Source of the DNA: an uncultured archaeon
GTDB lineage: Archaea > Asgardarchaeota > Lokiarchaeia > Sigyniarchaeales > SOKP01
Length of the DNA: 64,000 nt
Reading direction: 5' to 3'
Assembly (NCBI GenBank): GCA_964486045.1
Contig: CAZALK010000015.1
Span: forward strand, 32,001 to 96,000
Below the pieces are notes generated by a model. That model was not told where the DNA came from. It was given only the letters and a program-made list of their open reading frames with translations, and did not search any database. Shown here piece after piece: positions 4,098 to 51,450 of this stretch (position 1 is its first letter; the number at the start of each line of letters is the position of its first letter). The translations under genes were made by a program, and so were the position numbers.

Positions 4098-4168
4098 TTA
4101 AGATTAAGAAACTATTAAATCCTCACGAAAACAATTAAAAAAATAAAATCAAAAAGAAGAGGTTAGGC

Positions 4169-4672
4169 TTATTCAGATTTAGGAAGTTTCCCAGGTAATT
4201 TAGTTGCTTCCAAAATCTTTTTTACTTCTTCAATATCAGGTGCAATTATCGGTGGCAAACCCAATTGTGTTCTCCTCCTTTCTATGGCAGGTTGCGATGG
4301 AATTGCTTTCCCATACTCTAACACCGCTGATGCTTGACCTGTATAATGAGTAGGGGCTTCACCTCTCTCTACACTCATATTTTTTAATATCGTAAAAATC
4401 TCTGTTAACTCAACTTTTTGCGGACAGACCTCATCACAGGTATCACATACAGTACATCCCCAAATATTAAAAGAATTTTCCGGTCCAAATATTTTCTCTT
4501 TAAGACCTAGTAAAGCATCTAAAATCAAACGTCTTGGGTTATATCTACCCTCAGTAACTTGCGCTACTGGACACGCTCCACTACATGTTGCACATTGATA
4601 ACAATATGCTAATGTACCTCCAATATCATTTCCAAGAATTTGGTTTCTGAATTCAAAATCTATAGTTGCCAT
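4169..4672 (-). CDS. hdrC: Heterodisulfide reductase subunit C-like 2x[4Fe-4S] protein
   Basis: CYQCATCSGACP and IWGCTVCDTCDEVCPQ motifs, 'YNPRRLI', and a C-terminal 'RRTQLGLPP' typical of HdrC. Confidence 0.88.
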   Translation of the reverse strand: MATIDFEFRNQILGNDIGGTLAYCYQCATCSGACPVAQVTEGRYNPRRLILDALLGLKEKIFGPENSFNIWGCTVCDTCDEVCPQKVELTEIFTILKNMSVERGEAPTHYTGQASAVLEYGKAIPSQPAIERRRTQLGLPPIIAPDIEEVKKILEATKLPGKLPKSE

Positions 4673-4988
4673 TTGAGCTGATCTGTTTATCTTATTATTA
4701 TGTAGTATAACTCATTGTCGATTTTAAAATTAATTCTTTTAAAATTTAGTTTTAAACCGATTTATAAATAAATCTAAATTTGTTAAGAAAGAAAAATTTA
4801 ATAGTGTTTCATTTTAAATTACGAGAACCTAAAAATTTCTATACGAAATTTCTACTTAAGATTTATTACATTTTATAAAATTCCGCTGTTAAATCCTAAT
4901 TAAAATAAATAAAAGAAATTAAATATGTATTCTCACAATAGTATTACAAAAACAATACTAATACTATAACACAAAATTTTGATGTATC

Positions 4989-5345
4989 ATGACAAATATT
5001 AATGAACTAAAAGAATTTGGATTGGATATCCCTGACACTATGCAAGAAGGCAAGGTCATCTTAGATGTATATACCGAGTGGTGTGGCCCCTGTAAATTCG
5101 TTAGCCCAATTCTCGAAAAGTTGAAGGAAGAAGGATTAATTAAATTAATAAAGGAAGACCTAGATAAGAATAGGCGACTCGGTGAGCGTTTTGGAATTAC
5201 AGCAATACCAAGTTTTCTTTTCTACAAAAACGGGGAACTTCTAAACCATCCTATAGAAGTTCAAGGCCAGGTCTTGGTGAAGAATGGGCTTATGGTGGGT
5301 GCTAGTGGGGAACCCGTTTTAAGGCAAATAATAGAGAAAATGTAG
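4989..5345 (+). CDS. Thioredoxin
   Basis: WCGPC active site; FGITAIPSFLFYKNG (cis-Pro loop). Confidence 0.92.
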   Translation: MTNINELKEFGLDIPDTMQEGKVILDVYTEWCGPCKFVSPILEKLKEEGLIKLIKEDLDKNRRLGERFGITAIPSFLFYKNGELLNHPIEVQGQVLVKNGLMVGASGEPVLRQIIEKM

Positions 5346-8237: not shown

Positions 8238-8303
8238 TGACTTTTAGACTAATCCAAGATATATAAACAAAAAAAAAAAACCAATTTCGAGTAAAACATA
8301 GCT

Positions 8304-10295: not shown

Positions 10296-10392
10296 ATTAA
10301 ACTATAAACAAATTTTACAAAGCTTACAGTTTTATCTAGGAAAAAGATTAAAAACTAACCAAAAAAATTAAAAAAAAGGAGGAATTAATTAT

Positions 10393-13300: not shown

Positions 13301-13416
13301 TGGTGAATTTCCTGATCCTTTTGAAGATAATTATTATTATCTACTTGAACTCGAAATATGGAAGAGATTATCAATAGAATTGTACAACCAATCAAAATTT
13401 TCTTATAGTTCTTCAT
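10393..13416 (-). CDS. Secreted/membrane-anchored prenyltransferase/squalene-cyclase-repeat (alpha/alpha toroid) protein
   Basis: Signal peptide; recurring 'TYYALYTL', 'NTYFAVKTL', 'SSYYCIKSL', 'YSYYAIKTL' helices with 'GGF/SGF' turns; C-terminal TM and basic tail. Confidence 0.7.
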   Translation of the reverse strand: MKNYKKILIGCTILLIISSIFRVQVDNNNYLQKDQEIHQKNQNLADLTTQPLTSSSKSNYEIIEEIIGEKLLEYQTQGYFSQIYEVSLQATYYALYTLDAVGYLNIINQTKILNYIMSHYDENSNIFMDDYSKRYLETDFSTSYYSLTSVLEINCYAILSLNILNRLDLIDVQESINFIWSCYNPISSGFIGQTYDSLLYSKRKVSTMDNTYFAVKTLNLLMGSWVAYNQEKNEIIQYINSLQITNNANWKFGGFYNDNDTSFDTLIPPLFEPNLLSSYYCIKSLEIFGMENTINSDNFNQFLDSLYEQTSYFFRMSLHFTNNDFTNLIATAIGLDLSQITGFTTISRNNVITFILNNRNSWGIWDESTTVSYHELIDTFQIIRCLKESGEIPQLTLQERDQIASSMDLFQQYNGYSLLSIDYMSNDLINTVVNSFDLFNRISDLDVLGLYSTIEKSYKEDDYFNLYGFTGSTDMDVSYISFRSRPIEYYSTNNYLFNHKFTFKALDSLKKLFKLDDFALDYNLMDLVDSIVDSQFLDNNFETYGTFLPLATFTRGTPEFQNDNIHFEYSYYAIKTLELLVEFLNLGNTADLSFNKGALYGYIARNMHIFNDMVYFNPHDETAPEIILEHNYYMVYILKALNLFSLDKNNITKFILQNVDYSNIQNVYYCYKINDILGLNIHFDVNQTSNLIRKLYSEEFNEFYLSTDYKKIDQEIFLWISEMARNDNIYIQCSYKDSVELGNVNSIIARFSNLIFTEYGRLTSVTFESEQFGILNLEKQFDGSYQINFMVPEDPTFFPVVEGTLVIYDYSKIIGQYPVSFQTNFELNTEFLPIKNDESTELYVNFSRKFFSGFTPVYNATVEVEISLEDEYLEFRNFTREDFDDYSRFSLIYNHVVEGNYTFKATLVDKFYPNGLFLFEYDTRSELGSIPNPIKPIKVNGWPLAIGGVFISVALTALVIKGGRWVKNKLAQDRNREVINNTRDKPTYNNDNKKPKRKRNKYYGKWS

Positions 13417-13481
13417 TGTTTTTTCATCATTTTATTAGTTTTATTTCATTAATTTCATAAACATATTTAAAAGAAAAATTA

Positions 13482-13829
13482 TCAAATAGCATCAAAAAGT
13501 CCGAGCACCCCAGCAGCTAACACTGCAACACCCCCCAACAAGAAACTAAAGCTAATAAGTAAGATACTAAGTAACAATAGAACTAACCAATGCCACGGTA
13601 TAGGATCATTGGGTTTAAACGCAGCTAACAACGTTAAAGAAGCAAAGAACATCCCCAGAACATAACCAAAAAATCCATTGAGTTGGACAAGTTGGTTGAA
13701 TAATGTGAATATATTATTAAAGGAGAATGCCATATAAGTTATTTGATAAGCGCCGTATACAAATCCACCAAAACCTCCTACGATTGTTAAGACTTTTATT
13801 ATCTTATTGTGTTTATAATATTTATCCAT
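13482..13829 (-). CDS. Small membrane protein
   Basis: 115 aa with 3-4 hydrophobic segments; SD-like GGAAGGTGG upstream on the minus strand. Confidence 0.7.
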   Translation of the reverse strand: MDKYYKHNKIIKVLTIVGGFGGFVYGAYQITYMAFSFNNIFTLFNQLVQLNGFFGYVLGMFFASLTLLAAFKPNDPIPWHWLVLLLLSILLISFSFLLGGVAVLAAGVLGLFDAI

Positions 13830-13848
13830 CTTGTACCACCTTCCTATT

Positions 13849-14472
13849 TCATTCTAATTGATAATCAATTATTTTTGCTTTCAAGAATGCCAATTTTTCT
13901 TCTAAAAGGTGCTTAGAGTTGTCATTTTCCGTAATTTTCTCTTTTAAATCATTTTTAGTGATTAACTTTTTAGCTCTTTCTGTAATTAGTTGAATGCGCT
14001 TATCTTCAAAATTAATAACTTCCTCTTTTAATTCTTGAAAATATGAGTGTGCTAAAGATTTCAAATCTTCAAAATTACTTATAATATTAATAATCTTCTG
14101 GAGATAATGTCCCTTGGTTAGTTCGTAAGATTCGGAGTCAATATGCCCTTTTTTTTTCTCTCTATTAAGATTTACAATAAATTGGTTATTTTGTTTTAAG
14201 AGTTTAGATAGATTGAATACATTATTCCAATTTTTTACTTGTGATATGACATTTCTATATTTTGCATCGTTTTCAGTAATAATTATTTTCAGAGCTTCAA
14301 ACTTGTGTTTAATCTTTGTGTGATCTTCAGATTTTAACAATTTTTCAATAGATTTTAATTTGGAATTCAGCCTTTTTCTAATTTTTCTCAGTCTATAAAT
14401 TTCAAATAATAGATCTAATTGATTTAAATGTTCAAATTTTTGAATGGGCTCATTTAATTTTATTTCGGTCAT
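13849..14472 (-). CDS. Coiled-coil hypothetical protein
   Basis: 207 aa, K/E/L-rich heptads; same strand as and directly upstream of 13482-13829. Confidence 0.7.
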   Translation of the reverse strand: MTEIKLNEPIQKFEHLNQLDLLFEIYRLRKIRKRLNSKLKSIEKLLKSEDHTKIKHKFEALKIIITENDAKYRNVISQVKNWNNVFNLSKLLKQNNQFIVNLNREKKKGHIDSESYELTKGHYLQKIINIISNFEDLKSLAHSYFQELKEEVINFEDKRIQLITERAKKLITKNDLKEKITENDNSKHLLEEKLAFLKAKIIDYQLE

Positions 14473-14766
14473 TTTTTCGTTTAAAAATATTTTAGTTGAA
14501 GCAGAAAAATTTCAGAGTATTTAAACAAAAAAATTGAGGTAGTTACATAACTTAGTGATAGGATTTAAATCTCTCAAATTTTCTTCCTTCATAAGGTCTA
14601 CTTAATTTTTAACAATCCATATCTTTCTTTCTTCATTTAACTTAGTATCTTTAACCATTGCTATTAGAAGACTCAATAAATTATATAATATAGCAATGTG
14701 ACAAAAAGGTTTAAATGAGAAAGTCGATTATAGAATTAATATAATTTATCTTCAGCGATAAAAATT

Positions 14767-17700
14767 ATGACAAAAATGCATTATAAGCTTAAAATCGTTG
14801 GCTCCATACTGCTATTCTTATTTATATTTAGCAGTGTTCCTCAATTTTTCTTACATGAAATTAATAATAATTCTATAAAGGGGGAAACCGACAAGAATTC
14901 AGAAGAATTAAAATTATCTGCGACATATTGGACGACAACTGAGGTAGTCTCCACCGAGAGTACAGATCCTTCTATGAACCCAACGATTACTGTGGATGGT
15001 AACGGGAACGTGCACGTGGCATGGCATGACTTAACGAATTATAGTGGTTCTGAAACGGATCAGGACATATTTTACAAGCAATGGAACTCCACTAGTAACA
15101 TGTGGACAACAACCGAGGTAATCTCCACCGAGAGTACTCTTGATTCTAAGGCTCCCACAATTGTAGTGGACAGTGTCGGGAACGTGTATGTTGCATGGTC
15201 TGATTTAACGAACTATAGTGATTCAGGAACGGATCGGGACATATTTTACAAGCAATGGAACGCCACTAACAGCATGTGGACAACAACCGAAGTGATCTCC
15301 ACCGAGAGTACAATTGATTCTGAGGCCCCCACCATTGGGGTGGACGTTACTGGGAATATACACATAGCGTGGTTTGATTTAACGAACTATAGCGGTTCGG
15401 AAACGGATCGGGACATATTTTATAAGCAATGGAATGCCACTAGCAGCACGTGGACAACAACCGAGGTGATTTCCACCGAGAGTACTGAAGATTCTTATAC
15501 TCCCACGATTGCGGTGGACGGTATCGGGAACGTGCATGTCGCATGGTATGATTATACGAACTATAGTGATTCGGGAACTGATTGGGACATATTTTACAAG
15601 CAATGGAACTCTACTAGCAGCATGTGGACCACGACCGAGGTAGTCTCTACCGAGAGTAATGGTGGTTCCTATTCCCCTACGATTGTGGTGGACAGTGTCG
15701 GGAATGCGCATGTTGTATGGGGTGATACGACGAATTATAGTGGGTCGGGAACGGAATATGACACATTTTACAAGCGATGGAACGCTACTAGCAGTATATG
15801 GACCATGACCGAGGTGGTATCTACCGAGAGCACGGGAAATTCTTATATGTCTACGATTATGATGGACGGTGCTGGGAATGCACATGTTACGTGGGACGAT
15901 TATACAGATTTTGCCGGAGCTGGATGGGATCGGGACATCTTTTACAAGCAATGGAACGCCACTAGCAGCACGTGGACAACAACCGAGGTGATCTCCACGG
16001 AGAGTATGGATGATTCTTATTTTTCTACGATCGCGGTGGACGGTACTGGGTATGTGCACGTCGCGTGGTGCGATCTAACATATTACGACGGGGCGGGATG
16101 GGATTATGACATATTTTATAAACGAATGAAACTCCTTCGCCAAATTACGATTAATTCCCCAAGTCAAAATGACCTTTTAGCAAGTGTAGCCCCAAATTTC
16201 AATATTACTGTAATAATTTCTAATTTAGATACTATGTGGTATACTTTAGATGGTGGGATAATCAATATAACATTTAGTGGATTAACTGGAACAATTGACC
16301 AAACAGAGTGGAATAAGAAAGGTGATGGCCCTGTTATAATTAGATTTTATGGAAATGATACTATTGGTTTTGAAGTGTATGATGAAGTGACTGTTATTAA
16401 AAGCGTTCCGATTCCTAGTATTATTTCCCCAGAAAATAAAACTTACACCGCTCCGATGAGTGGGTATTACCCTGCAACATTTGGATTTGAAAATGATTTA
16501 AATGGCACCATTCCGGAAGGTTGGTATCAAGTTTTAACATATGGGGGAAGTTCTGAAATCTTAAATGAATATACCAATCATTTTAAGGTAGTTTCTCTTT
16601 ATGATTATAATTCTACAGATCAGATAGATATTATTCACAATTTTACTCAACAAATTTCGGGAGACATCGAATTTTATTTTTACACTAATGATTCTTTTCA
16701 GAGGTTTCATATCTGTATTTCCGAAGATATAAGTGGACTTGTTGATGGTATTTATTTAGATGTTGTTGATGGTAAGGTTACATACAGAGTAGGGCCTGGA
16801 ATTGGTACATGGTATGACATAACTACGCTTTCAAATAACACATGGCACCACTTTTTAATTCAATTTGATTCCACACTTGATAAATTTTGGTTAACACTTG
16901 ATGGGGTAGTATATGGGGGTGTAGGTGGTTTTGATTATCGCATTCCTACTTCAAATTTAAAATCAATTATGTTCAGGAGTGGGACACCGGAATCAAATTT
17001 TAGGGTTTATCTTGATGCGATTAGTTTTTCATGGGATCCTAATTATAATGTTGGTGATAATTTAAATGAAGGTTTATTGCTAAGCTTTGAGAATACTACT
17101 ACACTTGATTGGATTAGCTATTCCTTAGATAATCAACCTAGTAGAACTATATTAGGAAATGCAACTGTTTCAATGCCGGAAGATGGAGTCCATACAATTC
17201 AAGTTTTTGGCAACGACTCAGTAGGAAATTTGTTTCAATCTAATGTGAGATATTTTTCAGTTGATACTAGATCACCACAAATAACTATTAAATCACCAAA
17301 CCAGATTGACTTTTTCGGAACTTTTGTACCCAGTTTTGAAATTGCTATCGTAGAACCTAATTTGAATACTATCTGGTACACACTAGACGATGGGTTGATA
17401 AACAAAACCTTTACCGGATTAAACGGAACAATCGACCAAACAGAATGGGATAAGAAAGGTCACGGAGCTGTAACTATAAGGTTTTATGCTAATGATTCCT
17501 TTGGGAGAGTTGGGTATACGGAAGTGGTTATTAATAAAGATTTAACTCCGCCAACATCTTTAGTTTCTTTCTTTCCCCATAGGGGAATAAATGAAGTAAA
17601 CACATCCACAACATATATTTTAACGGCTGATGATGGATTAGGATCTGGAGTTTCAATAATTAGGTACAAAATAAATAATTCTACTTGGGCGGATTACACT

Positions 17701-17922
17701 GGTCCTTTTGATTTATCTAGTTATGAATATGGATATTATTATATTTCCTACTACGCAATTGATTTAGTGAATAATATTGAAACTGACAATACTCTTTTAG
17801 TTTTATTGGTAAAATTACATAGTGAACAGGTCGTGCCAGGATATCATACGTTTCTGCTGATTGGTATAATATGTGTGGTTTCTGTAATTCTCATTAAAAA
17901 GCGTAATAAAAACAATCTATGA
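14767..17922 (+). CDS. Cell-surface glycoprotein: 7-blade beta-propeller repeats, Ig-like and LamG-like domains, Loki-CTERM-like anchor
   Basis: Signal peptide; seven 58-aa repeats (WTTTEVxSTES...GNVHVAW...DIFYKQWN); Ig-like 'WYTLDGG' repeats; ends VPGY-TM-KKRNK; many N-x-S/T sequons. Confidence 0.85.
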   Translation: MTKMHYKLKIVGSILLFLFIFSSVPQFFLHEINNNSIKGETDKNSEELKLSATYWTTTEVVSTESTDPSMNPTITVDGNGNVHVAWHDLTNYSGSETDQDIFYKQWNSTSNMWTTTEVISTESTLDSKAPTIVVDSVGNVYVAWSDLTNYSDSGTDRDIFYKQWNATNSMWTTTEVISTESTIDSEAPTIGVDVTGNIHIAWFDLTNYSGSETDRDIFYKQWNATSSTWTTTEVISTESTEDSYTPTIAVDGIGNVHVAWYDYTNYSDSGTDWDIFYKQWNSTSSMWTTTEVVSTESNGGSYSPTIVVDSVGNAHVVWGDTTNYSGSGTEYDTFYKRWNATSSIWTMTEVVSTESTGNSYMSTIMMDGAGNAHVTWDDYTDFAGAGWDRDIFYKQWNATSSTWTTTEVISTESMDDSYFSTIAVDGTGYVHVAWCDLTYYDGAGWDYDIFYKRMKLLRQITINSPSQNDLLASVAPNFNITVIISNLDTMWYTLDGGIINITFSGLTGTIDQTEWNKKGDGPVIIRFYGNDTIGFEVYDEVTVIKSVPIPSIISPENKTYTAPMSGYYPATFGFENDLNGTIPEGWYQVLTYGGSSEILNEYTNHFKVVSLYDYNSTDQIDIIHNFTQQISGDIEFYFYTNDSFQRFHICISEDISGLVDGIYLDVVDGKVTYRVGPGIGTWYDITTLSNNTWHHFLIQFDSTLDKFWLTLDGVVYGGVGGFDYRIPTSNLKSIMFRSGTPESNFRVYLDAISFSWDPNYNVGDNLNEGLLLSFENTTTLDWISYSLDNQPSRTILGNATVSMPEDGVHTIQVFGNDSVGNLFQSNVRYFSVDTRSPQITIKSPNQIDFFGTFVPSFEIAIVEPNLNTIWYTLDDGLINKTFTGLNGTIDQTEWDKKGHGAVTIRFYANDSFGRVGYTEVVINKDLTPPTSLVSFFPHRGINEVNTSTTYILTADDGLGSGVSIIRYKINNSTWADYTGPFDLSSYEYGYYYISYYAIDLVNNIETDNTLLVLLVKLHSEQVVPGYHTFLLIGIICVVSVILIKKRNKNNL
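14929..16125 (+). repeat. Seven intragenic tandem repeats, 174-nt period
   Basis: The tgg-acN-...-gagGT-tcNacNgagag unit recurs at 14929, 15103, 15277, 15451, 15625, 15799 and 15973. Confidence 0.92.
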
Positions 17923-18068
17923 TTTTTTTTATATCTCATTTCTTTATATTAAAAAAAAGAAGAGGGAGAAAATTTTTATATAAAAATGGAAATGATTAAT
18001 TAAGTTAAGACAAAAAATTTAGAAAATTCATTTAAAATTTACTAAAAGATAAAAATAAGAGAAAGAAA

Positions 18069-20687
18069 ATGACAAAGACGAGTTGTAAAATACTTAAATC
18101 AATTTTATTATTCATAATGATAATTGGTTCTTATCAAGGCTTGATATTTTCTGAAACTAACAAGAATTCATCGAGGAGCGAGACTATCAATAATTTAGAC
18201 GACTTTGCACAAGACTTAGCTACTTCAACTACAAATTGGGCGACCACAGAAATCCTCTCAAATAGTAGTATAGTAGATTCTTATATACCGGCTGTTGCAT
18301 CAGATGGTGCAGGAAACATTCATGTGACATGGTATGATTGGACAAATAATTATAGTGTATTATACAAGTTTAAGAATGCTACAACTGGAGCATGGGCTGT
18401 AACTGAACTAGTCTCAACAGAGACCATAGATGACTCTTATAGACCTACAATTGCAGTGGATAATGTTGGGAATGTCCATATTGCATGGGAGGATAAAACA
18501 GATTATAATGGTTCTGGAACTGATACTGATATATTTTACAAGTTTAAGAATGCTACTACGGGAATATGGACTAATACTGAAGTAGTATCCACCGAAAGTA
18601 CAGGAGGTGGTGGTTCTTGGTGTCCAGCAATCGCTATCGACGGTATTGGGAATATTCATGTAACATGGTACGATTACACATATCTAGGACCAGGAGCGGG
18701 GCCAGACATATTTTATAAGTTTAAGAACGTCACTACAATGGCATGGACAACAACTGAGGAGATTTCTAACGAGAATTACGGTATTTCTTTGCAGCCGGTG
18801 ATTGTAGCGGATGGTATTGGGAATGTTCATATTGCATGGTTTAACGGCTCTGGTGGGGATATGGGGGATGTGTATTACATATTTAAGAACGCTTCCACAG
18901 GTTTATGGACTACTGTTGAAGAGGTTTCTGCCGAAAGTACAAATGACTCCTCATTACCAACGATTGCATTGGATGGTGTTGGTAATATCCATCTTGCATG
19001 GGAAGATTACACGAATTATAGTGGTTCTGGAACGGATGCTGATATATTTTACAAGTTTAAGAATGCTACCACAGGAACATGGACTAACACTGAAGTAGTA
19101 TCTACCGAAAGCACGGGTGGTTCTAGAGCTCCCGCTATCGCTATAGACAATCTCGGGAACATTCATGTGGGATGGATGGACAACATGTTTTATGATGGTC
19201 ATTTCGGAGCGAATATATTTTACAAGCTTAAGAATAACTTTACTAAAACGTGGACGAAAACCGAGGTAGTCACCACGGAGGGCCCAGATGCTTCTGTTAA
19301 TCCTACTATCACTGTGAATGGTGATCGGAATATTCATATAGTGTGGATGGATAACCTTAATTATTCTGGCGCGGGAACAGACTGGGATATATTTTACAAG
19401 TATTATGAAATGGATTTAACTCCACCAAGCTTAACCGATATACAGGTGAGTAGTGATCCATTATTCTTAAATGGAACCCAAACAATCACATGCAACGTTT
19501 CTGATCCATCTGGGATTTTTAGTATTACTGCTTATATTGAACACCCAGATGAAATTATCATAGCTACAATGGTATTATATGATGATGGACTAAATGGCGA
19601 TGGAAATTTCAATGATGGTATTTATGGAAATATATGGGATTCTAATGGTGTTGCTCTCGGGACATATTTCGTTGATATTCTTGCGTTAGACAATAGTTCA
19701 TTTCAAAATAAGGAACTCATTAACAACGGAGTTAGCTTTATAATAGAAGAAGGACCTCCAATAATCACGATCAATTCTCCTACACCAAGTGCAGTATTTG
19801 GAAATGATGCTCCATCTTATAATGTTTCCATACCTGGGCTCTATCATTCGATGTGGTATACGTTAGATGATGGAGTTACAAATATAACTACAAGTGGACT
19901 AATTGGTATCATAAATCAAACTGAATGGGATAAAGAAGGAGATGGAAATGTTACCATCACATTTTATGCAAACAACACCTTTGGTAAAATTGGTTTTAAT
20001 TCAGTAAAGGTAATAGTAGATAAAAATATCCCCATAATCGATATAAATTCGCCAACAACTAACCAGTTGTTTGAGAATAATATTCCAAGCCCAACATTCA
20101 ATATATGGATTAACGAGACTAATCTAGTAGAAATGTGGTATACATTAAACTCAGAATCATTTAAATATTTCTTTTTAACAAATTCATCAATAAATCAGAA
20201 TGCTTGGAACACTTTGTCAGATGGTACGGTAACAATTAGATTTTATGCAAATGATTCATTAGGAAATATAGGATTTGCAGAAGTAACAATCGGTAAAGAT
20301 ATTAGCGCCCCAATAATAACCATCAATAATCCACAAAATGGTGATATTAATGGAGCTACAGCACCCAATTTTAATATATCTATTATTGAACCATTTTTAG
20401 CTAAAACTTGGTATTCATTAAATGGAGGGAACAACATTACTTTTATGGGGCTAACTGGGACAATAAATCAAGCTTTATGGGATGCTTTATCAGAAGGAAA
20501 CGTTATAATTAGATTTTATGCTAACGATACTTTAGGAAGAATAAGCTTCACTGAAGTTGCTGTTGTAAGGATAATTTCTCAATCAAATCTTCCTGGGATT
20601 CCTGGATACAATATATTATTAATTATTGGAATTGTTTCGACTATAACCGTAATAATCATCAAAAAAAGACTAAATCATATAGGTTAA
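18069..20687 (+). CDS. Cell-surface glycoprotein paralog: beta-propeller repeats, Ig-like domains, Loki-CTERM-like anchor
   Basis: About seven more diverged 'GNIHxxW...DIFYKFKNATT' repeats; 'LYDDGLNGD...NDGIYG' Ca-binding-like motif; three Ig-like repeats; ends IPGYNILLIIG...KKR. Confidence 0.85.
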   Translation: MTKTSCKILKSILLFIMIIGSYQGLIFSETNKNSSRSETINNLDDFAQDLATSTTNWATTEILSNSSIVDSYIPAVASDGAGNIHVTWYDWTNNYSVLYKFKNATTGAWAVTELVSTETIDDSYRPTIAVDNVGNVHIAWEDKTDYNGSGTDTDIFYKFKNATTGIWTNTEVVSTESTGGGGSWCPAIAIDGIGNIHVTWYDYTYLGPGAGPDIFYKFKNVTTMAWTTTEEISNENYGISLQPVIVADGIGNVHIAWFNGSGGDMGDVYYIFKNASTGLWTTVEEVSAESTNDSSLPTIALDGVGNIHLAWEDYTNYSGSGTDADIFYKFKNATTGTWTNTEVVSTESTGGSRAPAIAIDNLGNIHVGWMDNMFYDGHFGANIFYKLKNNFTKTWTKTEVVTTEGPDASVNPTITVNGDRNIHIVWMDNLNYSGAGTDWDIFYKYYEMDLTPPSLTDIQVSSDPLFLNGTQTITCNVSDPSGIFSITAYIEHPDEIIIATMVLYDDGLNGDGNFNDGIYGNIWDSNGVALGTYFVDILALDNSSFQNKELINNGVSFIIEEGPPIITINSPTPSAVFGNDAPSYNVSIPGLYHSMWYTLDDGVTNITTSGLIGIINQTEWDKEGDGNVTITFYANNTFGKIGFNSVKVIVDKNIPIIDINSPTTNQLFENNIPSPTFNIWINETNLVEMWYTLNSESFKYFFLTNSSINQNAWNTLSDGTVTIRFYANDSLGNIGFAEVTIGKDISAPIITINNPQNGDINGATAPNFNISIIEPFLAKTWYSLNGGNNITFMGLTGTINQALWDALSEGNVIIRFYANDTLGRISFTEVAVVRIISQSNLPGIPGYNILLIIGIVSTITVIIIKKRLNHIG

Positions 20688-20947
20688 AATTTTTAGATTT
20701 AACTTTCATTTTATTAATTTTATATTTAAATACTTAATTAATTTGCTCCCAAGTGAAGAAAAACATAAAGATTCTTGATTCTTGAGCACTTACCTAATTT
20801 AAATTGGTGGAGAAAAATTTTGAAAGTAAACGAGTCAGGTTGAACAAGCTAAAAAAGTCTCATTGAACACTCTTTAAATAAGATCCACAATATACCACAT
20901 TATATTAATTTTTTCCTTCATATATATTATGTTATCGGGAAAAAACC

Positions 20948-21037
20948 GTTCCAGGATATAAAGTATTTCTGCTGATTAGTACAATTTGTGTTGTTTTTGT
21001 AATTCTTATTAAAAAACGAAATAAAAATAAAGTTTAA
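20948..21037 (+). pseudogene. Orphan 3'-end copy (Loki-CTERM tail) of the 14767-17922 gene
   Basis: Reads VPGYKVFLLISTICVVFVILIKKRNKNKV* versus VPGYHTFLLIGIICVVSVILIKKRNKNNL* at 17833-17922. Same 90-nt length; downstream 'tttctttatatt' is also shared. Confidence 0.85.
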
Positions 21038-21353
21038 TATTTTTAATTTATCGTTTCTTTATATTCTCGAAAAATTTAGCAGGGATATTACTTAAATTAC
21101 CAGCATAATGGAGTTTTCCATCCTGCTAATTCTGCTTGCTATTAAATAGTCATTTTTAGGTTGTGGTAAAGTAGGAAAAACATATCTGGAGTCCTTTATT
21201 CTATTTTAATAGGAGTTAGGATTCATACCCAACACAACCCAGATCGAATCAACTAGCTATCAATTAATTTTGGATCCATCCAAAAATTGTGAATTTTTTA
21301 TTTATAAAAGGAAAATTTAATTCCTCTTCAAAATTAAACGATTATTGTAACTT

Positions 21354-22619
21354 TTGAAAATGAGAGTTAAATTAAAGAGTTTAATACTGTATATCTTATT
21401 TCTTGCTTTTATTCAGACCCCAAATACTTCCTTATCATCATATTTCAGTTATAATTATCCATTAATCTCTTCTCCTAGTCACGGTGTTTCTAAATATGAT
21501 ATAACCCAGAGCGTGAAATATCAAGTAGAACTTAATTTTTCATTAACACATAAAGCAGGCATAGGTAGCTATATTTTCCAATTTGCTAGGTTAGGTAATC
21601 GCATTCCCAATTCAACCTTTACTAAATATACTCCTCCTTATCAAGAAAGTGCCCTTTTAATAAATGAGATAAGGGGGCCTAAGCCAATTAGTATTAGAAA
21701 GGGGCATCTTGATAAATTCAATAATACATATGACTCATTCAATGCTACATTGTTACCTTATACTCCGAGATTGTCTAAAATAATCCCAAAAGTAACATTT
21801 AGTCAAATATATGTTATAGAATTAAACGCCATCGAATTTCAGGGTATCGAGGACACTGAAATTGGATCGTATGATCCATCTGATAAAATCTTTGAATTAT
21901 ATTGTAATAATCCAGAACAATATTATGAGCGGGACAATCCTGACTTAATTTCCTTATCAAATAGTATCGTAAATTCTGATGATAATCCTATCGAGAAAGC
22001 AGAAAAAATATTTAACTGGGTCTCTGACAACCTTGATTATAATGGGAACCTGCCACCTCAAGAAAAAGGTGCATTATGGGCTTTTAATAATTTAGAGGGT
22101 GATTGCAGTGAGTATTCAAGTTTAATGATTACTTTATTACGGATACAAAATATTCCCGCTCGAAAGATAACGGGATTCCTATTATCTAACGATCCATCAA
22201 TACATCCTAACACAGGTGATACATGGACTTTCTATGCTTCTGAATCAACTTCAAACATCATAGCGCATGCTTGGGTCGAATATTATGTTCCTAATATAGG
22301 GTGGGTTGCTTGTGATCCTACTTGGAATTCCGGGTCAAATTATTTTAACAGAATAGACTTTCTCAGGTTTAACTTAAACATTGGGGCGAATTTCTTCTTT
22401 CCTCCCTCTAATACTGTGAGTGAGTATTTAAATCCACTATTCAGTTATTCCTTTGGTGCCTTGTACGAATATGATTATACTATAAAAATTACTGTGATTG
22501 AATCTAATATTACAAAATTAAGTTCTTTTCCGCAAGTTGTTTTTCTGATTATAATAGTAGGGATCATTGGGATTATCATAGCTACTGTATTTTTTAAAAA
22601 GAAAAGGTATAGAAAGTAA
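21354..22619 (+). CDS. Secreted transglutaminase-like (TGc/cysteine protease-like) protein with C-terminal TM anchor
   Basis: GDCSEYSSLMITLLRIQNIPARKITG (Cys), HAWVEYY (His), GWVACDPT (Asp). Confidence 0.92.
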   Translation: MKMRVKLKSLILYILFLAFIQTPNTSLSSYFSYNYPLISSPSHGVSKYDITQSVKYQVELNFSLTHKAGIGSYIFQFARLGNRIPNSTFTKYTPPYQESALLINEIRGPKPISIRKGHLDKFNNTYDSFNATLLPYTPRLSKIIPKVTFSQIYVIELNAIEFQGIEDTEIGSYDPSDKIFELYCNNPEQYYERDNPDLISLSNSIVNSDDNPIEKAEKIFNWVSDNLDYNGNLPPQEKGALWAFNNLEGDCSEYSSLMITLLRIQNIPARKITGFLLSNDPSIHPNTGDTWTFYASESTSNIIAHAWVEYYVPNIGWVACDPTWNSGSNYFNRIDFLRFNLNIGANFFFPPSNTVSEYLNPLFSYSFGALYEYDYTIKITVIESNITKLSSFPQVVFLIIIVGIIGIIIATVFFKKKRYRK

Positions 22620-22740
22620 GTCATTTATTTTCAATGATAATTATGTTACAAAAATTTTATAAATTTCATATCACATCATTTGATATGCAAAAATTCAATA
22701 TTGCATCAGTTAAAATACGAAATTAAAAAAGATAAAAAAA

Positions 22741-22746
22741 AGGAGG
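22741..22746 (+). promoter_or_regulatory. Shine-Dalgarno-like site
   Basis: AGGAGG ending 10 nt upstream of the ATG at 22757. Confidence 0.55.
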
Positions 22747-22756
22747 ATCAGACGAA

Positions 22757-23332
22757 ATGGCTAATAACGGGAAGAATTTATGGCTATTATTTACAATTTC
22801 GGGGATATTAGGCACAATATCCTTTTTTTTTCCTTTCATCACAGGTCGATTTGATTGGTATTGGGTTTACTATTATCAAAACATGGAGTATTACATAGCA
22901 ATCTTGTTGATTTTGGGAGGAATTTTATTATTACTGATACCAGGAATTTACAGTAAAATAACAGAGAAACATAGTTTAGATCCATTAGGATTTTTTGGGG
23001 GTTTATTTCTACTATTTGCCCCATTAGTATATTTTATGGGAATACCATTCATGCCATTATTTTTTATATGGGTTCAACCAACATTCTTGATTTCTCTCGC
23101 TGGTGGGATTTTAGGATTAATAGCATGGGTACTTGGACTCAAATATAATAAACTAAATAAGATAAGTAAAGCTGGAATGACTCTAACATCCTATGGATTT
23201 ATGGCTTATCTAGTTAACTTTATTATACCTTCACCATCTTCTTGGGCTTTCTATTTTGTGGTAGGTCCAGTTTGGATTTTAATCGGCTTTGTTATCTTTG
23301 GAATTGGACTCATAAAATCAATGTTTAAATAA
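22757..23332 (+). CDS. Multi-pass membrane protein of unknown function
   Basis: 191 aa, about 6 Gly-rich TM segments, own SD site, T-rich tract after the stop. Confidence 0.8.
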   Translation: MANNGKNLWLLFTISGILGTISFFFPFITGRFDWYWVYYYQNMEYYIAILLILGGILLLLIPGIYSKITEKHSLDPLGFFGGLFLLFAPLVYFMGIPFMPLFFIWVQPTFLISLAGGILGLIAWVLGLKYNKLNKISKAGMTLTSYGFMAYLVNFIIPSPSSWAFYFVVGPVWILIGFVIFGIGLIKSMFK

Positions 23333-23530
23333 TTCAAACTTTTTTTTCTTTTTATCTAAAATTAGTCCGTTTTGATTTATAATAGATATTTGAATCTTTT
23401 CTAAAAATCTAATTATTTTTTTATTTCATTTTTATATAATTTTCAATTCAAAAATAAGGTTGTAAAATTAACAATCCCAATTTTTATCAAATTTCATCTG
23501 ATTTTTCAATCCACCAACAAAATCAGGTTA

Positions 23531-23586
23531 TCTAGAAAATAAAAAATGAATAAGAAATAATACTAATAATCTGTTAAATAGATTAC
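23531..23586 (+). repeat. Direct repeat copy 1 (~55 bp, 22-bp exact core with palindrome)
   Basis: tctagaaaataaaaaatgaataagaaataatactAATAATCTGTTAAATAGATTAC aligns with 26302-26356. The core at 23565-23586 is identical to 26335-26356. Confidence 0.88.
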
Positions 23587-23590
23587 CGAC

Positions 23591-23899
23591 TCAAATTATT
23601 TTAACAGAATTGATTTTCTCAGATTTAACTTAAATATCGGTGCAAATTTCTTCTTTCCTCCTTCTAATACGGTAAGTGAGTATTTAAATCCGCTATTTAG
23701 TTATTCCTTTGGTGCCTTGTATGAATATGATTACACATTAAAAATTACTGTTATTGAATCGAATATTTCAACCTTAGATTCATTTCCCGATGTTGTTTTC
23801 TTGATTATTATTGTAGGGATCATTGGTGTTATCATAGCTATTGTAGTTTTAAAAAAGAAAAGTCATAGAAAGGATGTTAAAATATATCCAAAGTATTAA
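23591..23899 (+). pseudogene. Orphan 3'-end copy of the transglutaminase-like gene
   Basis: Aligns in frame to 22335-22619. The first 49 codons are identical in amino acids with 15 synonymous changes. An in-frame TAG lies just upstream (23579-23581). Confidence 0.92.
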
Positions 23900-24008
23900 G
23901 ATATTTTATATTTTCTTGAAGACTTGGAAAAAGGAACAATAATTCAATCAATTTTATAAATCTTTTGCTATTATTTCTATATATTTAAAAGACAGAGATA
24001 AAAGAATT

Positions 24009-26264
24009 ATGAATTTTAATCAGAAATCTGGGGTTAAGTTATGTCTCATCTTCTTTATTTTTGTTATGACAATAATCTTGCCAACGCAAACCTTTAATCA
24101 GGATAATTTGGATATCCAAAAAGATCTCCAAATCTCTTCACCGGATAGTTTAACATCTGATTTCCATGAACTTTGGGGTGGCAGTCAATATGACACTTCA
24201 GAGGCAATCGCACAAGATTCTGAGGGAAATATATACATTGGAGGATATACCTCAATTGCTAGCAGCTTCGACTTTTTTTACGTGAAATATGATCATTTTG
24301 GGGAAGTGATCTTTAACAGAACATGGGGGGGAGGAAATAATGATCAAAGTCATGATTTAATTGTTGATGCATCCAGTAATCTCTATCTCGCAGGGTGGTC
24401 AGTCGATTATGGGGGTGTATTAGTACAATTTGATCAGAACAACAATAAACAGTGGCATAGATCAATAAATGGGGCAATTTATGGTATCGCTTTAGATACT
24501 TTAAATAATATATATGTAGTTGGGAGACTTGATAACACATCAGGCTGGCATGATGATTATTTTCTTGCAAAATACAATACTATAGGAGATCAACTATGGA
24601 ATAATTCTTGGGGAGGACCAGATGATGACATTTGCTTTGATCTGGTTGTTGACTCATTTAATAACATATATATAACTGGTACTACTGAAAGTCTTGGATC
24701 ATTTAATTATGATATATCTATAGCAAAATATAATAATGTAGGAGATTTACAATGGCATACTACCTGGGGGGGAACAGAAAACGAGAGAAGTAATTCTATA
24801 GCAATGGATTCCAACGGAAGTATATATATTACCGGTTTCACTTATAGCTATGGTGAGGGGGAACGTGATGTTGTGTTATTAAAATATAATAACTCTGGAA
24901 CCCTACAGTGGAATAAAACGTGGGGAGGCCCTCTCCCAGATGAAGGAAAAGGAATTGATATTGATGCGCAAGATAATATTTTTATAACTGGGGGTACATA
25001 TAGTTTCTCAACGGATTTTAAAAGCGAGTTATTCATTGTTATCTTTGATAGTTCTGGTGAATTTAAAGATTCTTTTTTTTGGGGAGAGGAAAATTCTCAA
25101 ACAAGCGGGAATGATCTAATAGTAGACTCTTATAACCTTTATATTGTTGGATCTACATCTGGTTTTGGTGCAGGTGGTACGGGAGATGCGTGTTTACTGC
25201 ATATAGTTTATAATCCAATTCAAATGACAGTACCGAGTGATAATTCTATTAATCCCCTTATTATATTGCTAATTATTCTATCTATTATTCTCCCAACTTC
25301 AATTGGATCGTTTGTTATCTTATCAAAAAGAAAAAAGATAAAAAAAAGAGGATTAATAATAGAACCACTTCCCTTCAATAAGAAAACCACTGATCCAATC
25401 AAGGTTTCTGACAATCTAAAAGCCCTAATTATATCAAATGTTAGGTATGGTAGTAATAGATCTAAAACTATTAAACACTTTATCAAATTTTTTAAATTAA
25501 AACTCCCCTCAGAATTGAACGAAGTCTATGAATTAATAATAGAACTATTAAGTATTAACTTCGCCTTTTTTTGGAACAGCATATATAATAAATGTGCCGA
25601 AAAATTAGAGAAACAAGTTCCTCTTAACGAATTTTTAGATTTTGAAAAAAAACTTGTAGAAGATCTTTTTTTAATTGAAGAAATTAATGAAGTTATCCAA
25701 ACTCATTTACTAGGAAAATTTACCTTCCCGCGAATTGAAGCATCTATTAAAGGACATATTTTTATCACTAATTATCGGATTATTTTACCAAGAGGTCATC
25801 AATTATCCACATTAACTTCTGCAGATGCTCTCAGTATGATACCACTGATGAGGGGAACTGCACAAAGAAGAGCTAACAAGATAAATAGAAGAAGAAAAGA
25901 ATTTAATAATGTTATTGCTCAGCAAAAACAGTTTAAGTCATTATACAAACCAGGTGAAGCCTTTATTTTTGGGGTTCCATTCAATCTTAAAGTTGCTTAC
26001 GACATGTCCTTTTCAATGATTTACAAATATAAAACAAAAAAACTAGAAGAAAAAAATTACAAACTAGATTTAAAAATAAAACCAATCGCATACAAAAATG
26101 AATCCCAGCAAGAATTCTTTGAAAGAAAAAAGTTTATTTTTTCCACCATAACTGATGTTTTTTCTCAATATCCTACAATTATATGTCATAAATGCTTTCA
26201 AGTACAGGATAGAACCTTAGATTCCTGTGTTAAATGTGGGACCACACTAAAACCGAAGATTTGA
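24009..26264 (+). CDS. Single-pass receptor-like protein: extracellular SBBP beta-propeller, TM, cytoplasmic GRAM/PH-like domain, C-terminal Zn ribbon
   Basis: Repeats 'WGG...D....I..D...NIYI.G.T'; TM 'PLIILLIILSIILPTSIGSFVIL' followed by KRKKIKKR; 'GHIFITNYRIIL'; terminal CHKC...CVKCG. Confidence 0.78.
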   Translation: MNFNQKSGVKLCLIFFIFVMTIILPTQTFNQDNLDIQKDLQISSPDSLTSDFHELWGGSQYDTSEAIAQDSEGNIYIGGYTSIASSFDFFYVKYDHFGEVIFNRTWGGGNNDQSHDLIVDASSNLYLAGWSVDYGGVLVQFDQNNNKQWHRSINGAIYGIALDTLNNIYVVGRLDNTSGWHDDYFLAKYNTIGDQLWNNSWGGPDDDICFDLVVDSFNNIYITGTTESLGSFNYDISIAKYNNVGDLQWHTTWGGTENERSNSIAMDSNGSIYITGFTYSYGEGERDVVLLKYNNSGTLQWNKTWGGPLPDEGKGIDIDAQDNIFITGGTYSFSTDFKSELFIVIFDSSGEFKDSFFWGEENSQTSGNDLIVDSYNLYIVGSTSGFGAGGTGDACLLHIVYNPIQMTVPSDNSINPLIILLIILSIILPTSIGSFVILSKRKKIKKRGLIIEPLPFNKKTTDPIKVSDNLKALIISNVRYGSNRSKTIKHFIKFFKLKLPSELNEVYELIIELLSINFAFFWNSIYNKCAEKLEKQVPLNEFLDFEKKLVEDLFLIEEINEVIQTHLLGKFTFPRIEASIKGHIFITNYRIILPRGHQLSTLTSADALSMIPLMRGTAQRRANKINRRRKEFNNVIAQQKQFKSLYKPGEAFIFGVPFNLKVAYDMSFSMIYKYKTKKLEEKNYKLDLKIKPIAYKNESQQEFFERKKFIFSTITDVFSQYPTIICHKCFQVQDRTLDSCVKCGTTLKPKI

Positions 26265-26286
26265 GAAGAATCAGGTTCCACAACCC

Positions 26287-26309
26287 TTACTAAATATGAG
26301 ATTTAGTAA
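26287..26309. other. Perfect 9-bp inverted repeat downstream of 24009-26264
   Basis: TTACTAAAT-atgag-ATTTAGTAA; could be a terminator or a binding site. Confidence 0.45.
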
Positions 26310-26356
26310 ATAAAGAGTGACAATAAATCATACAAATAATCTGTTAAATAGATTAC
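26302..26356 (+). repeat. Direct repeat copy 2 (upstream of V4R gene)
   Basis: tttagtaaataaagagtgacaataaatcatacaAATAATCTGTTAAATAGATTAC; palindromic core TAATCT-N7-AGATTA. Confidence 0.88.
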
Positions 26357-26419
26357 AAATCTTTTATTTGATGAATTTTTTTCAATATTAAATTAATTAA
26401 GAGTTTACACAAGAGAGAG

Positions 26420-26932
26420 ATGAATTATTCGAGAGAAGAATTAATACAAACGGATGCAACAATGAACCAAATGAGAAATGCAGTATATGAATTAGCGCGA
26501 TTCATGAAGAAAAATGGGTTGACTAATTTAAAAGAGAAATTAAGGAAAATGGGAAATAATATATCCAGAACTTTTATCCGATACTGGAAACCTATAGACA
26601 TAGTCAACCTTTCCAATTTAAAAGATGTTTTGACTACTATTTATCAAAAAATACTCAATAGTTCTGTCTCTATTGAAATCGTTGAGGTTGAAAATTTAGT
26701 CAAAGTTCGAGATTATAAATGTGCTTTATGCAAATATCAATATGATGATGTGGAAATAGCCGGGTGCGAAATTATTTTGGGAATGGTATCTGAAATCATA
26801 AAGCTTATCAACGGAGATGTGGAAGATCTCTCTTCTGTATTAATAGAACCACTTAAAGTAGCAGAATCTCGATCATATGGAGATAAAGTATGTACTCAAG
26901 TTTACAAATATAAAAGTAGTGAGAGGGGCTAG
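26420..26932 (+). CDS. V4R/Bet3(TRAPP)-like domain protein
   Basis: 'LRKMGNNIS' helix; CALC...GCEIILGMVSEI...C pattern typical of the V4R/HNOX/Bet3 fold. Confidence 0.65.
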   Translation: MNYSREELIQTDATMNQMRNAVYELARFMKKNGLTNLKEKLRKMGNNISRTFIRYWKPIDIVNLSNLKDVLTTIYQKILNSSVSIEIVEVENLVKVRDYKCALCKYQYDDVEIAGCEIILGMVSEIIKLINGDVEDLSSVLIEPLKVAESRSYGDKVCTQVYKYKSSERG

Positions 26933-26934
26933 AG

Positions 26935-28404
26935 ATGGGAGCTTTTCAATGGTTAATGAAAAAAATAACTAAGGTCTTTGGACATTCTACAAATGCTCTA
27001 TTTTACACACTTCTTTATCGGGAAATTCTTAAGGAGATTAATGAAATCACCAAGAAGGAAGAAGACAGTCTTGTTGTTCTTAAAGAGATGGGTAAACGGG
27101 CTGGGTATGAATCATGTGAACGTCATTCAAGCGTTTTTAAATTTATGCCTGGATCTCCAAAAAAGATCCTAGAATATTTCGAGATTCTTTGGGTTGTTGT
27201 ATTTGGAAGAGAGTTAGATGATTATTCTTATGAGGAAATTTTTAAAGAAGATTCAAAGTATAATGATTATGTATTAAGAATCAGTAAATGTCCTTTATGC
27301 GCTGGTTACGGGCAAGATATTGAAGATACATTTGATTTTAGTAAAACAAAAAATAAAGAAACAGAAGGATTAGCTTGTGGATTATGTGGAATGTTGGAAA
27401 GTGTTGCTAATTTTATATTAAAAATAAAAAGAAATGATTATAGAATTCAAATAACAGAACAAACCTGCATAGCGAAGGGTGGAGATTCTTTACAATTTAT
27501 CTGTAAAATATATGACTACAATCAATGGAAAAAACTTGTGGATTCAAGAGCTCAAGAAAAAATGACAATAGACGCTTATTTTGGAGATCGATTAGAAGAA
27601 GAGATTATTCAAGAAACGAAGTTTGATATTATTGATAAACTCCAAGATGTTATTTCAATTGATAAATTAGAGGAATATCTTGATGAGCCATTCGAAACTA
27701 TTAAGGAGCGTGTATCTGACATTATTAGAGATAAATTGAACATGGAACCAGAGCATTTTTTTGATTATTTTCGAAATTATGAGGATGATATGATTAGAAT
27801 AATTGGATATTTAGGAATTCATCTTCTAAACGAGTATGGTGGTTTATTAGAAAGATCTCTCAAGAATGAGTGGTTTGCAAAAGTTTTTGGATACATTTTT
27901 AAACAAGTTAAAGAAATGGTTTTGTTATTCATTCCGCTAGATGTGATCCGAGATTACAATGATTTATTAGTAAATTTTTTAGAAGGTTTAGCACCAGTTG
28001 AAATGGTTGATAATATTAGACATTTTACAGGAAGGGATACAATAAATCTATTGTTTGAAGGAGCCAAAATGGCTCTTGAAAACTTAGGAATTGAGTTTAC
28101 TGAATTGAAAGAAAATATTTGGGAAGAATTGAAGAAGGAAAGAGAAGATGGATTACTCCCATCTGAATCAACAACAGTTGATAAGACTCGTGAAAGAGTT
28201 CCACATATTCTCAATATCATTCAAGAAATGTTGATGATAATCACTGATATTTTTACTCTTCCAATTCGTGTGTTAATTTCTGAAAGCCATTACGGGTTAA
28301 AGACAGCAATAAACTCCATTATTTCCGAAGAAGAAGGATTATATGGCTCTATAAAGGAACGGTTTGACAGCATCTTTGATCAGATCGAAGAGATTAGAAA
28401 GTAA
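26935..28404 (+). CDS. V4R/Bet3-like N-terminal domain plus acidic helical C-terminal domain
   Basis: 'LKEMGKRAG', 'LWVVVFGRE', CPLC, 'ACGLCGMLESV', 'EQTCIAKGGDSLQF'; starts 2 nt after the previous gene. Confidence 0.68.
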   Translation: MGAFQWLMKKITKVFGHSTNALFYTLLYREILKEINEITKKEEDSLVVLKEMGKRAGYESCERHSSVFKFMPGSPKKILEYFEILWVVVFGRELDDYSYEEIFKEDSKYNDYVLRISKCPLCAGYGQDIEDTFDFSKTKNKETEGLACGLCGMLESVANFILKIKRNDYRIQITEQTCIAKGGDSLQFICKIYDYNQWKKLVDSRAQEKMTIDAYFGDRLEEEIIQETKFDIIDKLQDVISIDKLEEYLDEPFETIKERVSDIIRDKLNMEPEHFFDYFRNYEDDMIRIIGYLGIHLLNEYGGLLERSLKNEWFAKVFGYIFKQVKEMVLLFIPLDVIRDYNDLLVNFLEGLAPVEMVDNIRHFTGRDTINLLFEGAKMALENLGIEFTELKENIWEELKKEREDGLLPSESTTVDKTRERVPHILNIIQEMLMIITDIFTLPIRVLISESHYGLKTAINSIISEEEGLYGSIKERFDSIFDQIEEIRK

Positions 28405-50377: not shown

Positions 50378-50401
50378 AAAAGATCAGGAGATCAAATATC
50401 A

Positions 50402-51418: not shown

Positions 51419-51450
51419 TTCAAACTTACAAAATTATAGGTGAAAAATTT

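Follow-up and report, generated by a model that had tools for sequence, protein, structure and literature searches.

Displacement of the C-terminal end of a gene, with orphan "tips" as its trace, has been described for rhs and also for cdiA (Jackson et al., 2009; PMC2935791), and for the rhs tips the proposed model is that a circularised donor integrates by a single crossover. Sequential displacement of T6SS (type VI secretion system) effector-immunity modules in Vibrio cholerae has been ascribed to homology-facilitated illegitimate recombination, with linear DNA as the proposed route (Kirchberger et al., 2017; PMC5361080), a process for which that work refers to de Vries and Wackernagel (2002) and Prudhomme et al. 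(2002). Here we describe a locus in a 64,000-nucleotide stretch of DNA (positions 32,001 to 96,000 of contig CAZALK010000015.1, hereafter the window), which is part of a 141-kb contig in a 5.18-Mb genome bin of the Promethearchaeota (Loki-type Asgard archaea). In this locus a gene for a transglutaminase-like surface enzyme (TGase) is followed by a cargo gene, by a truncated and diverged second copy of its own 3' end, and by a second, unrelated cargo gene. The arrangement is probably the product of one homologous exchange and one microhomology join between two diverged haplotypes of a single variable slot.

The intact gene, allele A (TGase-A), occupies an open reading frame (ORF) on the forward strand at 21354-22619, with 421 amino acids (aa) counted from a TTG codon or 419 aa from the ATG at 21360, where gene callers place the start. 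The protein combines an N-terminal signal or transmembrane segment, a Transglut_core domain (Pfam PF01841, E=5e-25), and a C-terminal transmembrane anchor with a basic tail. All further features of the locus lie on the same strand. Cargo A (22757-23332) encodes a 191-aa polytopic membrane protein. It is followed by the repeat copy R1 (23552-23586), which reproduces the first 35 nucleotides (nt) of the conserved upstream region of a downstream operon and ends at the junction, and then by the orphan 3' end of a second TGase allele, B (23587-23899), which runs from codon ~327 to the stop codon and has no start, promoter or 5' part. Cargo B (24009-26264) encodes a 751-aa receptor-like protein, and behind it lies R2 (26322-26356), where the conserved region upstream of the operon has its distal start and the slot its right border. 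The rest of that upstream and promoter region (26357-26419) is kept genus-wide and is not duplicated. It leads into the conserved two-gene operon that forms the fixed right flank (26420-28404), consisting of a 170-aa gene (26420-26932) and a 489-aa gene (26935-28404). An earlier sequence-only reading of this DNA had given the same order of genes, and TGase, cargo A, cargo B and the downstream gene at 26420-26932 are all matched in the ORF list. Its label of "V4R gene" for the last of these found no confirmation, with no Pfam match to PF02830 (V4R) in the downstream genes and a single related match, to TRAPP/Bet3 (PF04051), that is below threshold (E=0.066) and falls on the following 489-aa gene.

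The part of TGase-A that is duplicated in the tail marks the start of half A (22331-22619) and is 85% identical to 23587-23875, with a longest exact run of 23 nt; the extended alignment of 22325-22621 to 23581-23877 also has 85% identity, over 297 nt. The orphan is truncated at its 5' side, where the frame is shut by an in-frame TAG at 23579-23581, and the 60-aa ORF that lies within it should not be called a gene in annotation. Across its first 49 codons the tail differs from TGase-A by 15 synonymous and 0 non-synonymous changes, with a synonymous divergence (dS) of 0.88. This is the count given in the sequence-only reading, and we reproduce it exactly. Codons 50-94 carry 9 synonymous and 12 non-synonymous codon differences, and all 94 codons together give a dS of 0.60 and a non-synonymous divergence (dN) of 0.063, or a dN/dS of ~0.1. 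What the tail retains is a conserved 49-codon stretch and then a divergent C-terminal part, with an end that is 7 codons longer.

This pattern is difficult to obtain from a dead sequence. The neutral probability of finding 0 of 15 changes to be non-synonymous is ~3e-11, and since decay in place would give mostly non-synonymous changes, the tail does not appear to have decayed where it now lies. Its nearest relative is the resident TGase at 88% aa identity, followed by a protein at 78% and by the sister-strain allele introduced below at 71%. The fact that the resident gene is the closest, yet is separated from the tail by a dS of 0.6-0.9, means that the tail originated from a diverged functional allele and not from a fresh duplicate, and the proposal in the sequence-only reading that the copy came from a functional gene gains support from the same dS/dN pattern. 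With 0 non-synonymous changes in the 118 non-synonymous sites of the conserved part, neutral decay of the tail amounts to less than ~2.5%. The tail has been non-functional only for that short span of neutral divergence, and so the join is recent and the two alleles are old.

R1 and R2 agree at 32/35 positions, with 3 differences and a 22-nt exact core that in R1 lies at 23565-23586, and R1 stops 0-4 nt before the tail copy begins. It is this strong 35-nt part of the repeat noted in the sequence-only reading that holds up, while the longer span proposed there (from 23531 and from 26302) adds only ~20 nt at ~70% similarity. Further left, a 10-nt match (AATCAGGTT) is found between the two R flanks. 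Even when 3 mismatches were tolerated, the 22-mer was confined to these two sites, both in the window (0 expected) and in the whole 5.18-Mb genome, so R is not a common promoter motif, an explanation that would have made its presence at the junction coincidental. It is the start of the upstream region of this one operon, as befits the right border of a slot, and is seen as such in the 14 relatives, species of the genus, that we aligned upstream of the 170-aa gene. In 14/14 of them the conservation starts at the left end of R2 (…ATCATACnAATAATCT…) and extends to the start codon, and left of the R2 position every one of the 14 aligned genomes differs. R1 matches the same promoter segment in the genus relatives. 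R also holds an imperfect inverted repeat, TAATCT-N7-AGATTA, and since this dyad stands upstream of the operon in all 14 relatives, including those that have no island, it is most simply read as a regulatory, promoter-associated element and not as a recombinase site. The operon itself is a stable landmark, with the 489-aa gene present in 50/53 genus genomes at 76-89% identity (a single match in most, with extra partial copies in a few). No known RNA family was matched in 20600-26500.

A sister strain (ENA ERZ23500248 scaffold_26, also in Logan SRR8799000), located via exact-protein look-ups, shows what a singly occupied slot looks like. Its layout is a 207-aa gene, a third TGase allele (TGase-C), three WD40/PQQ-like propeller genes (cargo C), a single R and the operon, with no orphan tail. 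TGase-A and TGase-C are 84% identical in amino acids, and at the nucleotide level the two strains agree at 90.5% across 21282-22504, dropping below 60% beyond. On the other side of the slot, a high-identity alignment to the sister begins precisely at the left end of R2, at 26322, and continues to at least 48698 with 99.6-99.9% nucleotide identity. From this single slot, and from the point at which high identity sets in, we conclude that the slot and its borders, as well as the third allele, are real. The three haplotypes (A via R1, B via R2 and C in the sister) have the same right border and carry cargoes A, B and C that are mutually unrelated. The central claim of the sequence-only reading, that the locus holds two alleles of one variable slot in tandem, is supported by this third allele, by the context of R and by the second assembly described below. 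The tandem layout is not common to all relatives, as the sister demonstrates. Relatives in which either half stands alone before the operon (TGase with cargo A, or TGase-B with cargo B), which that reading had expected, were not found.

Identity to the sister is 94.8% over window positions 12547-14536 and 88.6% over 3959-5343. Genes 16-25 kb further left have 94-99.7% protein identity to a second sister contig, and so the window and the sister represent strains of one species. Immediately right of R the mismatches between window and sister are unevenly spread, with 17 in 26330-26417, 21 in 26434-27169 and then ~1 per kb; 16 of the first 17 fall in 26357-26419. Expressed as divergence, the steps are ~30% over 26361-26417, 2.9% over 26434-27169 and then ~0.1%. 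These steps indicate several nested recombination tracts at the island edge, and form the mosaic expected beside a recombination hot spot.

The surroundings of the slot are variable throughout the genus. Most relatives have a ferredoxin-like gene, a thioredoxin gene, an unconserved spacer of ~0.14 kb and then the operon. At the spacer position the window has ~21 kb of genes for secreted or anchored proteins, and the three closest species have different inserts there. The ~490-nt "conserved intergenic" stretch that separates the ferredoxin-like gene from the island corresponds to a 118-aa thioredoxin gene (4989-5345 of the window) that is missing from the gene list. The neighbour of the thioredoxin gene in G013, the closest species, is what remains of the N-terminal part of the 207-aa island gene, so part of the island was formerly present in that lineage and has since been lost. 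Other species of the genus are too distant to supply single-occupancy haplotypes: their TGase proteins are at most 63% identical, and the genes usually lie between prenyltransferase-like and trypsin-like genes and not beside the operon; in distant relatives the neighbours are prenyltransferase-like and trypsin/CARDB genes (compared with window 5463-14472), and in the window genome and the sister the TGase gene is on the opposite strand, beyond the 207-aa gene. Since both the strand of the TGase gene and its neighbours differ from those in distant relatives, the island appears to have been rearranged.

We then consider the junction itself (23581-23590). In a three-way alignment of A, C and the tail, the sister allele reads …GGAATACCGCTTCAAAT, R ends in …AGATTAC and the junction reads …AGATTACCGACTCAAAT. 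The R end GATTAC overlaps in 5/6 bases with the GAATAC expected of a TGase from the sister allele, which points to an illegitimate junction at a 5-of-6 microhomology, GA(T/A)TAC. A second, independent assembly reproduces the tandem locus base for base. Its Logan contig SRR8799001_12551, built with k=31 from run SRR8799001, matches window 19040-26464 without a single difference, and TGase, cargo A, R1, tail, cargo B and R2 follow one another in it with no break. At the join R and TGase have at most 6 bases in common, and R1 and R2 share an exact stretch of only 22 nt and differ at 3 positions, so that a graph assembler cannot have invented the junction. The same contig ends exactly 30 nt past a strain-specific single-nucleotide polymorphism (SNP) at 26434, that is, at 26464, and because a k=31 contig stops 30 nt after such a SNP, a sister-like haplotype is taken to co-occur in run SRR8799001. 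The contig is unbranched at R1 and at the start of the tail, and this speaks, though weakly, against either a circle or an empty site being abundant in that run. No second copy of either flank is present in the bin. The 141-kb contig has no tyrosine integrase (PF00589) and no transposase, the five integrases of the genome being on other contigs, and the slot genes have no Pfam or PHROG match to recombinase families. A faint precomputed flag for Tyr_recomb_halo_N on the sister homologue of a 924-aa island-edge protein was not reproduced by hmmscan.

Taken together, these features are accounted for by a short series of steps. The slot lies at the right edge of a ~21-kb surface-protein island, bounded on its left by the TGase 3' end and on its right by the operon's upstream region, and different strains carry unrelated genes in it. 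Haplotype A would have consisted of TGase-A, cargo A and the operon promoter, and haplotype B of TGase-B, cargo B and the operon promoter. Within a Lokiarchaeial population, a DNA segment from a haplotype-A strain would have entered a haplotype-B cell, where one end of the segment would have recombined homologously and the other, broken 35 nt into the promoter, would have been joined to TGase codon ~327 by the microhomology GA[T/A]TAC. The product of such an event would be TGase, cargo A, R1 (35 nt of promoter), the stranded TGase-B end, cargo B, the full promoter (R2) and the operon. We infer that half A came in, with the crossover within ~1 kb of TGase homology, and we favour an incoming piece made up of the TGase-A end, cargo A and R1, since TGase offers ~0.3-1 kb of homology as against at most 35 nt in R, and since the piece beside the intact gene is the newcomer in published models. 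The donor may have been a circle or linear DNA, or the event may have been an unequal exchange between two chromosomes in one cell, as all three give the same product.

Several points weigh against this account of exchange plus microhomology join. The microhomology rests on a third allele, that of the sister, as allele B's own upstream sequence is lost. The reads behind the second assembly may be those from which the genome bin was made. Neither haplotype A nor haplotype B was found by itself in any strain, and both parents are therefore ones that we infer. Homologue searches found no TGase closer to the tail than the resident gene, and the deficit of non-synonymous changes at a dS of 0.88 exceeds what pairs of orthologues would predict (~3-7 expected vs 0), which is a mild oddity. 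We know of no DNA-uptake or cell-fusion route for these archaea.

One alternative reverses the direction of the event, with a 2.77-kb circle made up of the TGase-B end, cargo B and R (23587-26356) integrating by a single crossover in R into a resident chromosome with TGase-A, cargo A, R and the operon, and possibly still able to excise, much as the sequence-only reading had pictured it. Such a circle is topologically exact, the 22-nt perfect core of R could mark the crossover, and the model published for the displacement of rhs tips relies on circular intermediates. We nevertheless regard it as unlikely, since the crossover would have had to make do with at most 35 nt of homology when the mirror-image event had ~290 nt to 1 kb of TGase homology available, and since the newcomer is the piece beside the intact gene both in the rhs model and at the other orphan-end loci of this genome. 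The unbranched k=31 contig at R1 and the tail start points in the same direction, if weakly, as assemblers drop rare variants. The inverted repeat in R, which ends 0-4 nt from the breakpoint, and the right border common to three haplotypes could also suggest a site-specific cassette insertion, in which the dyad would serve as core site for a recombinase acting in trans and either tail, cargo B and R or cargo A and R would move in the manner of an integron cassette. This is very improbable given that R and its dyad stand upstream of the operon in 14/14 relatives, some of them island-free, that R is nowhere else in 5.18 Mb and is absent from the other orphan-end loci, and that the contig has no integrase, with the genome's five located elsewhere. 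The similarity between R1 and R2 moreover carries on leftward while decaying, as expected of a shared flank.

A purely local history has to be weighed as well. An old in-place tandem duplication of TGase, cargo and R, followed by divergence, replacement of a cargo and deletion of the 5' part of the second TGase, would explain why the tail is closest to the resident gene, and functional paralogues would likewise diverge by synonymous changes only. It requires at least three events, and a functionless R1 would have had to keep 22/22 bases over half of a dS of 0.6-0.9, with a probability of ~1e-3 or less. The cargoes have no similarity, the two units sharing only the TGase end and R, the sister has one TGase and one R, and no other orphan TGase end was found among ~130 TGase loci, so that we give this history very little credence. 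An assembly chimera, in which co-occurring A-only and B-only strains were stitched together, would be conceivable in a metagenome bin with 7.8% estimated contamination, particularly as a sister-like haplotype co-occurs in the same run (the contig stop 30 nt after SNP 26434). The junction does not fall at a shared k-mer (at most 6 nt between R and TGase, 22 nt between R1 and R2), so reads containing it are required; the second assembler (k=31) yields the same 7.4-kb sequence unbroken; R1 and R2, differing at 3 positions, are not a collapsed repeat; and the bin has no second copy of the flanks. A chimera is accordingly among the least credible explanations, and an exchange between diverged haplotypes, closed by a microhomology join, is the reading that we prefer.

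Cargo A has no Pfam or PHROG match and is the sole member of its 90% cluster, and its homologues, at most 39% identical, occur in 10/53 genus genomes, none of them adjoining a TGase. Cargo B comprises a signal peptide, an SBBP beta-propeller (PF06739, E=1e-24), a transmembrane segment and a 320-aa cytoplasmic part that ends in a Cys4 ribbon. Its C-terminal part has no Pfam or PHROG match, and the next-best homologue in a search of 5.8 billion clusters is 38% identical and covers the propeller only. Neither cargo has a Pfam or PHROG match to toxin or immunity families.

The TGase tail is linked to a pattern of orphan gene ends that is found genome-wide. Within the same island, 20934-21065 (forward strand) is a 77% copy of 17819-17950, which comprises the last ~30 codons and the 3' untranslated region of the surface gene at 14767-17922. 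The source is a 1051-aa BNR gene, the copy is stranded behind the next surface gene (18069-20687, 872 aa), and its upstream frame is closed. This second orphan end is part of a 6.75-kb block (14537-21289, forward strand) with two BNR/propeller surface genes that is absent from the sister. The block is flanked by an 8-nt direct repeat, AAAAATTG (14529-14536 and 21282-21289), which is present once at the sister's empty site, and in the alignment to the sister 14536 is followed by 21282, the two segments overlapping by 8 nt. The arrangement could stem from a gain or loss mediated by microhomology, or else from a target duplication. Elsewhere in the window, the DUF362 gene at 55409-56581 has an orphan at 59149-59387 that is an 80% copy of its last 239 nt (dS 1.2, dN 0.11), and between the two lie a gene for an M28 peptidase (56824-58080), which is inserted, and a further gene of 160 aa.

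A genome-wide screen for the order of gene, insert and diverged copy of the gene's own 3' end returned 32 matches. We checked 16 in frame, and ~10 of these are clear orphan ends with high dS and low dN, located 1-11 kb downstream of the intact gene; the DUF362 case in the window is one, and contigs C1, C3, C4, C6, C7, C10, C13 and C23 carry such loci. In one example, on contig C23, a gene at 49483-51762 has its orphan at 59931-60122, and over 62 codons the changes number 31.5 synonymous vs 2.5 non-synonymous. Elsewhere in the genus, orphan 3' ends of the 489-aa core gene lie behind inserts of 1.7-4.5 kb, at 17959-18294 of locus L243 (genome G018) and 18306-18479 of locus L244 (G045), and also in G051 and G004. 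The orphan end in G018 is 78% identical in nucleotides, with saturated dS and a dN of 0.11. The inserts behind the 489-aa gene carry DUF4238 proteins, a HEAT-repeat protein and a separate 489-aa protein; for the last of these, which lies in an insert of this kind in another species, neither Pfam nor PHROG nor the PDB gave a match. G018 and G045 are alike in the sequence directly after the intact 489-aa gene, a hint that the inserted elements are related. It is tempting to read gene-end replacement as a dedicated, integrase-free acquisition route of Asgard archaea, with an enzyme or a pool of circular DNA that targets gene 3' ends genome-wide, at ten or more loci in this genome and at the neighbouring core gene in other species. 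We think this doubtful; were it true, no earlier locus than the present one would have shown the transferred unit at both of its ends.

Several classes of mobile or repeated DNA were considered for this locus and set aside. An integrase-borne element does not fit an insert that has no recombinase, a repeat R found only here, and cargoes A and B that are unique in the protein collection. An integron-like array was rejected as the R dyad belongs to the operon upstream region in cassette-free relatives and there is no integrase, and a simple tandem duplication as the units share only the TGase end and R and have unrelated cargoes. Aloposons, mobile elements of Asgard archaea (PMC8813620), integrate at tRNA genes and carry giant genes, and are not relevant here.

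The locus does resemble, in part, the integrative elements that insert at the 3' ends of tRNA or protein genes (att sites), in that direct repeats of the target's 3' end flank the insert and the gene remains intact. It differs from them in having no integrase, in repeats that are 85% identical over 290 nt with no long exact core, and in an "element" that amounts to one small gene and a piece of the neighbouring promoter. At a broader scale, prokaryotic populations have flexible (or "metagenomic") islands, in which hypervariable blocks of cell-surface genes lie between conserved flanks. The island seen here conforms to that pattern, since its secreted and anchored block varies between strains that are >99.8% identical elsewhere, with the adjoining flank more diverged. 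The flexible-island concept covers the pattern and not the mechanism of joining; what the present locus adds to it is a junction that has been preserved. On this evidence, the stacking of alleles is a way in which the surface-protein islands of these archaea can grow without integrases.

The likeness to rhs and cdiA is closer. In both cases the intact gene has behind it a second copy of its 3' end that is promoter-less and 5'-truncated; the orphan copy has a conserved stretch and a divergent end, and each end is trailed by a different gene. Our proposal also has in common with that for rhs a homologous recombination with a laterally acquired and possibly circular fragment, by which the old end is pushed downstream. 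There are also differences. The gene encodes a transglutaminase-like surface enzyme, and what varies at its end is a membrane anchor with its basic tail instead of a toxin domain; none of the downstream genes can be recognised as an immunity gene; a single orphan stands in place of an array; and the locus belongs to an Asgard archaeon. Also preserved here, as R1, is the far side of the imported piece, which shows that the donor DNA came from the homologous locus. The locus therefore works like the C-terminal displacement of rhs, of contact-dependent inhibition (CDI) systems and of T6SS without belonging to them, and no toxin/immunity logic is visible.

With homology-facilitated illegitimate recombination, the locus shares a probable homology anchor in a conserved gene, a putative microhomology at the other end, the absence of an integrase and the retention of the old genes as orphans. 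Such recombination calls for a diverged donor, and the two TGase ends are separated by a dS of 0.6-0.9 at a dN/dS of ~0.1; the sister strain demonstrates that alleles as diverged as these two ends coexist in the population. Experimental demonstrations of the process are confined to bacteria that have natural competence or conjugation; here it is read from sequence alone, and the join at this locus duplicated recipient sequence and did not delete it. The mechanism has bacterial precedents, so that a known process is extended and not a new one introduced. What the locus contributes is a footprint, resolved to the base, of the recombination of diverged lineages within a natural Lokiarchaeial population, with both breakpoints preserved as a stranded gene end and a stranded 35-nt promoter piece, and with a third allele found in the sister between these borders. 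In practice, a high dS combined with a low dN makes orphan ends usable as markers of imported DNA. The value of this locus lies in the completeness with which the event can be read and in its record of recombination between lineages in an Asgard population.

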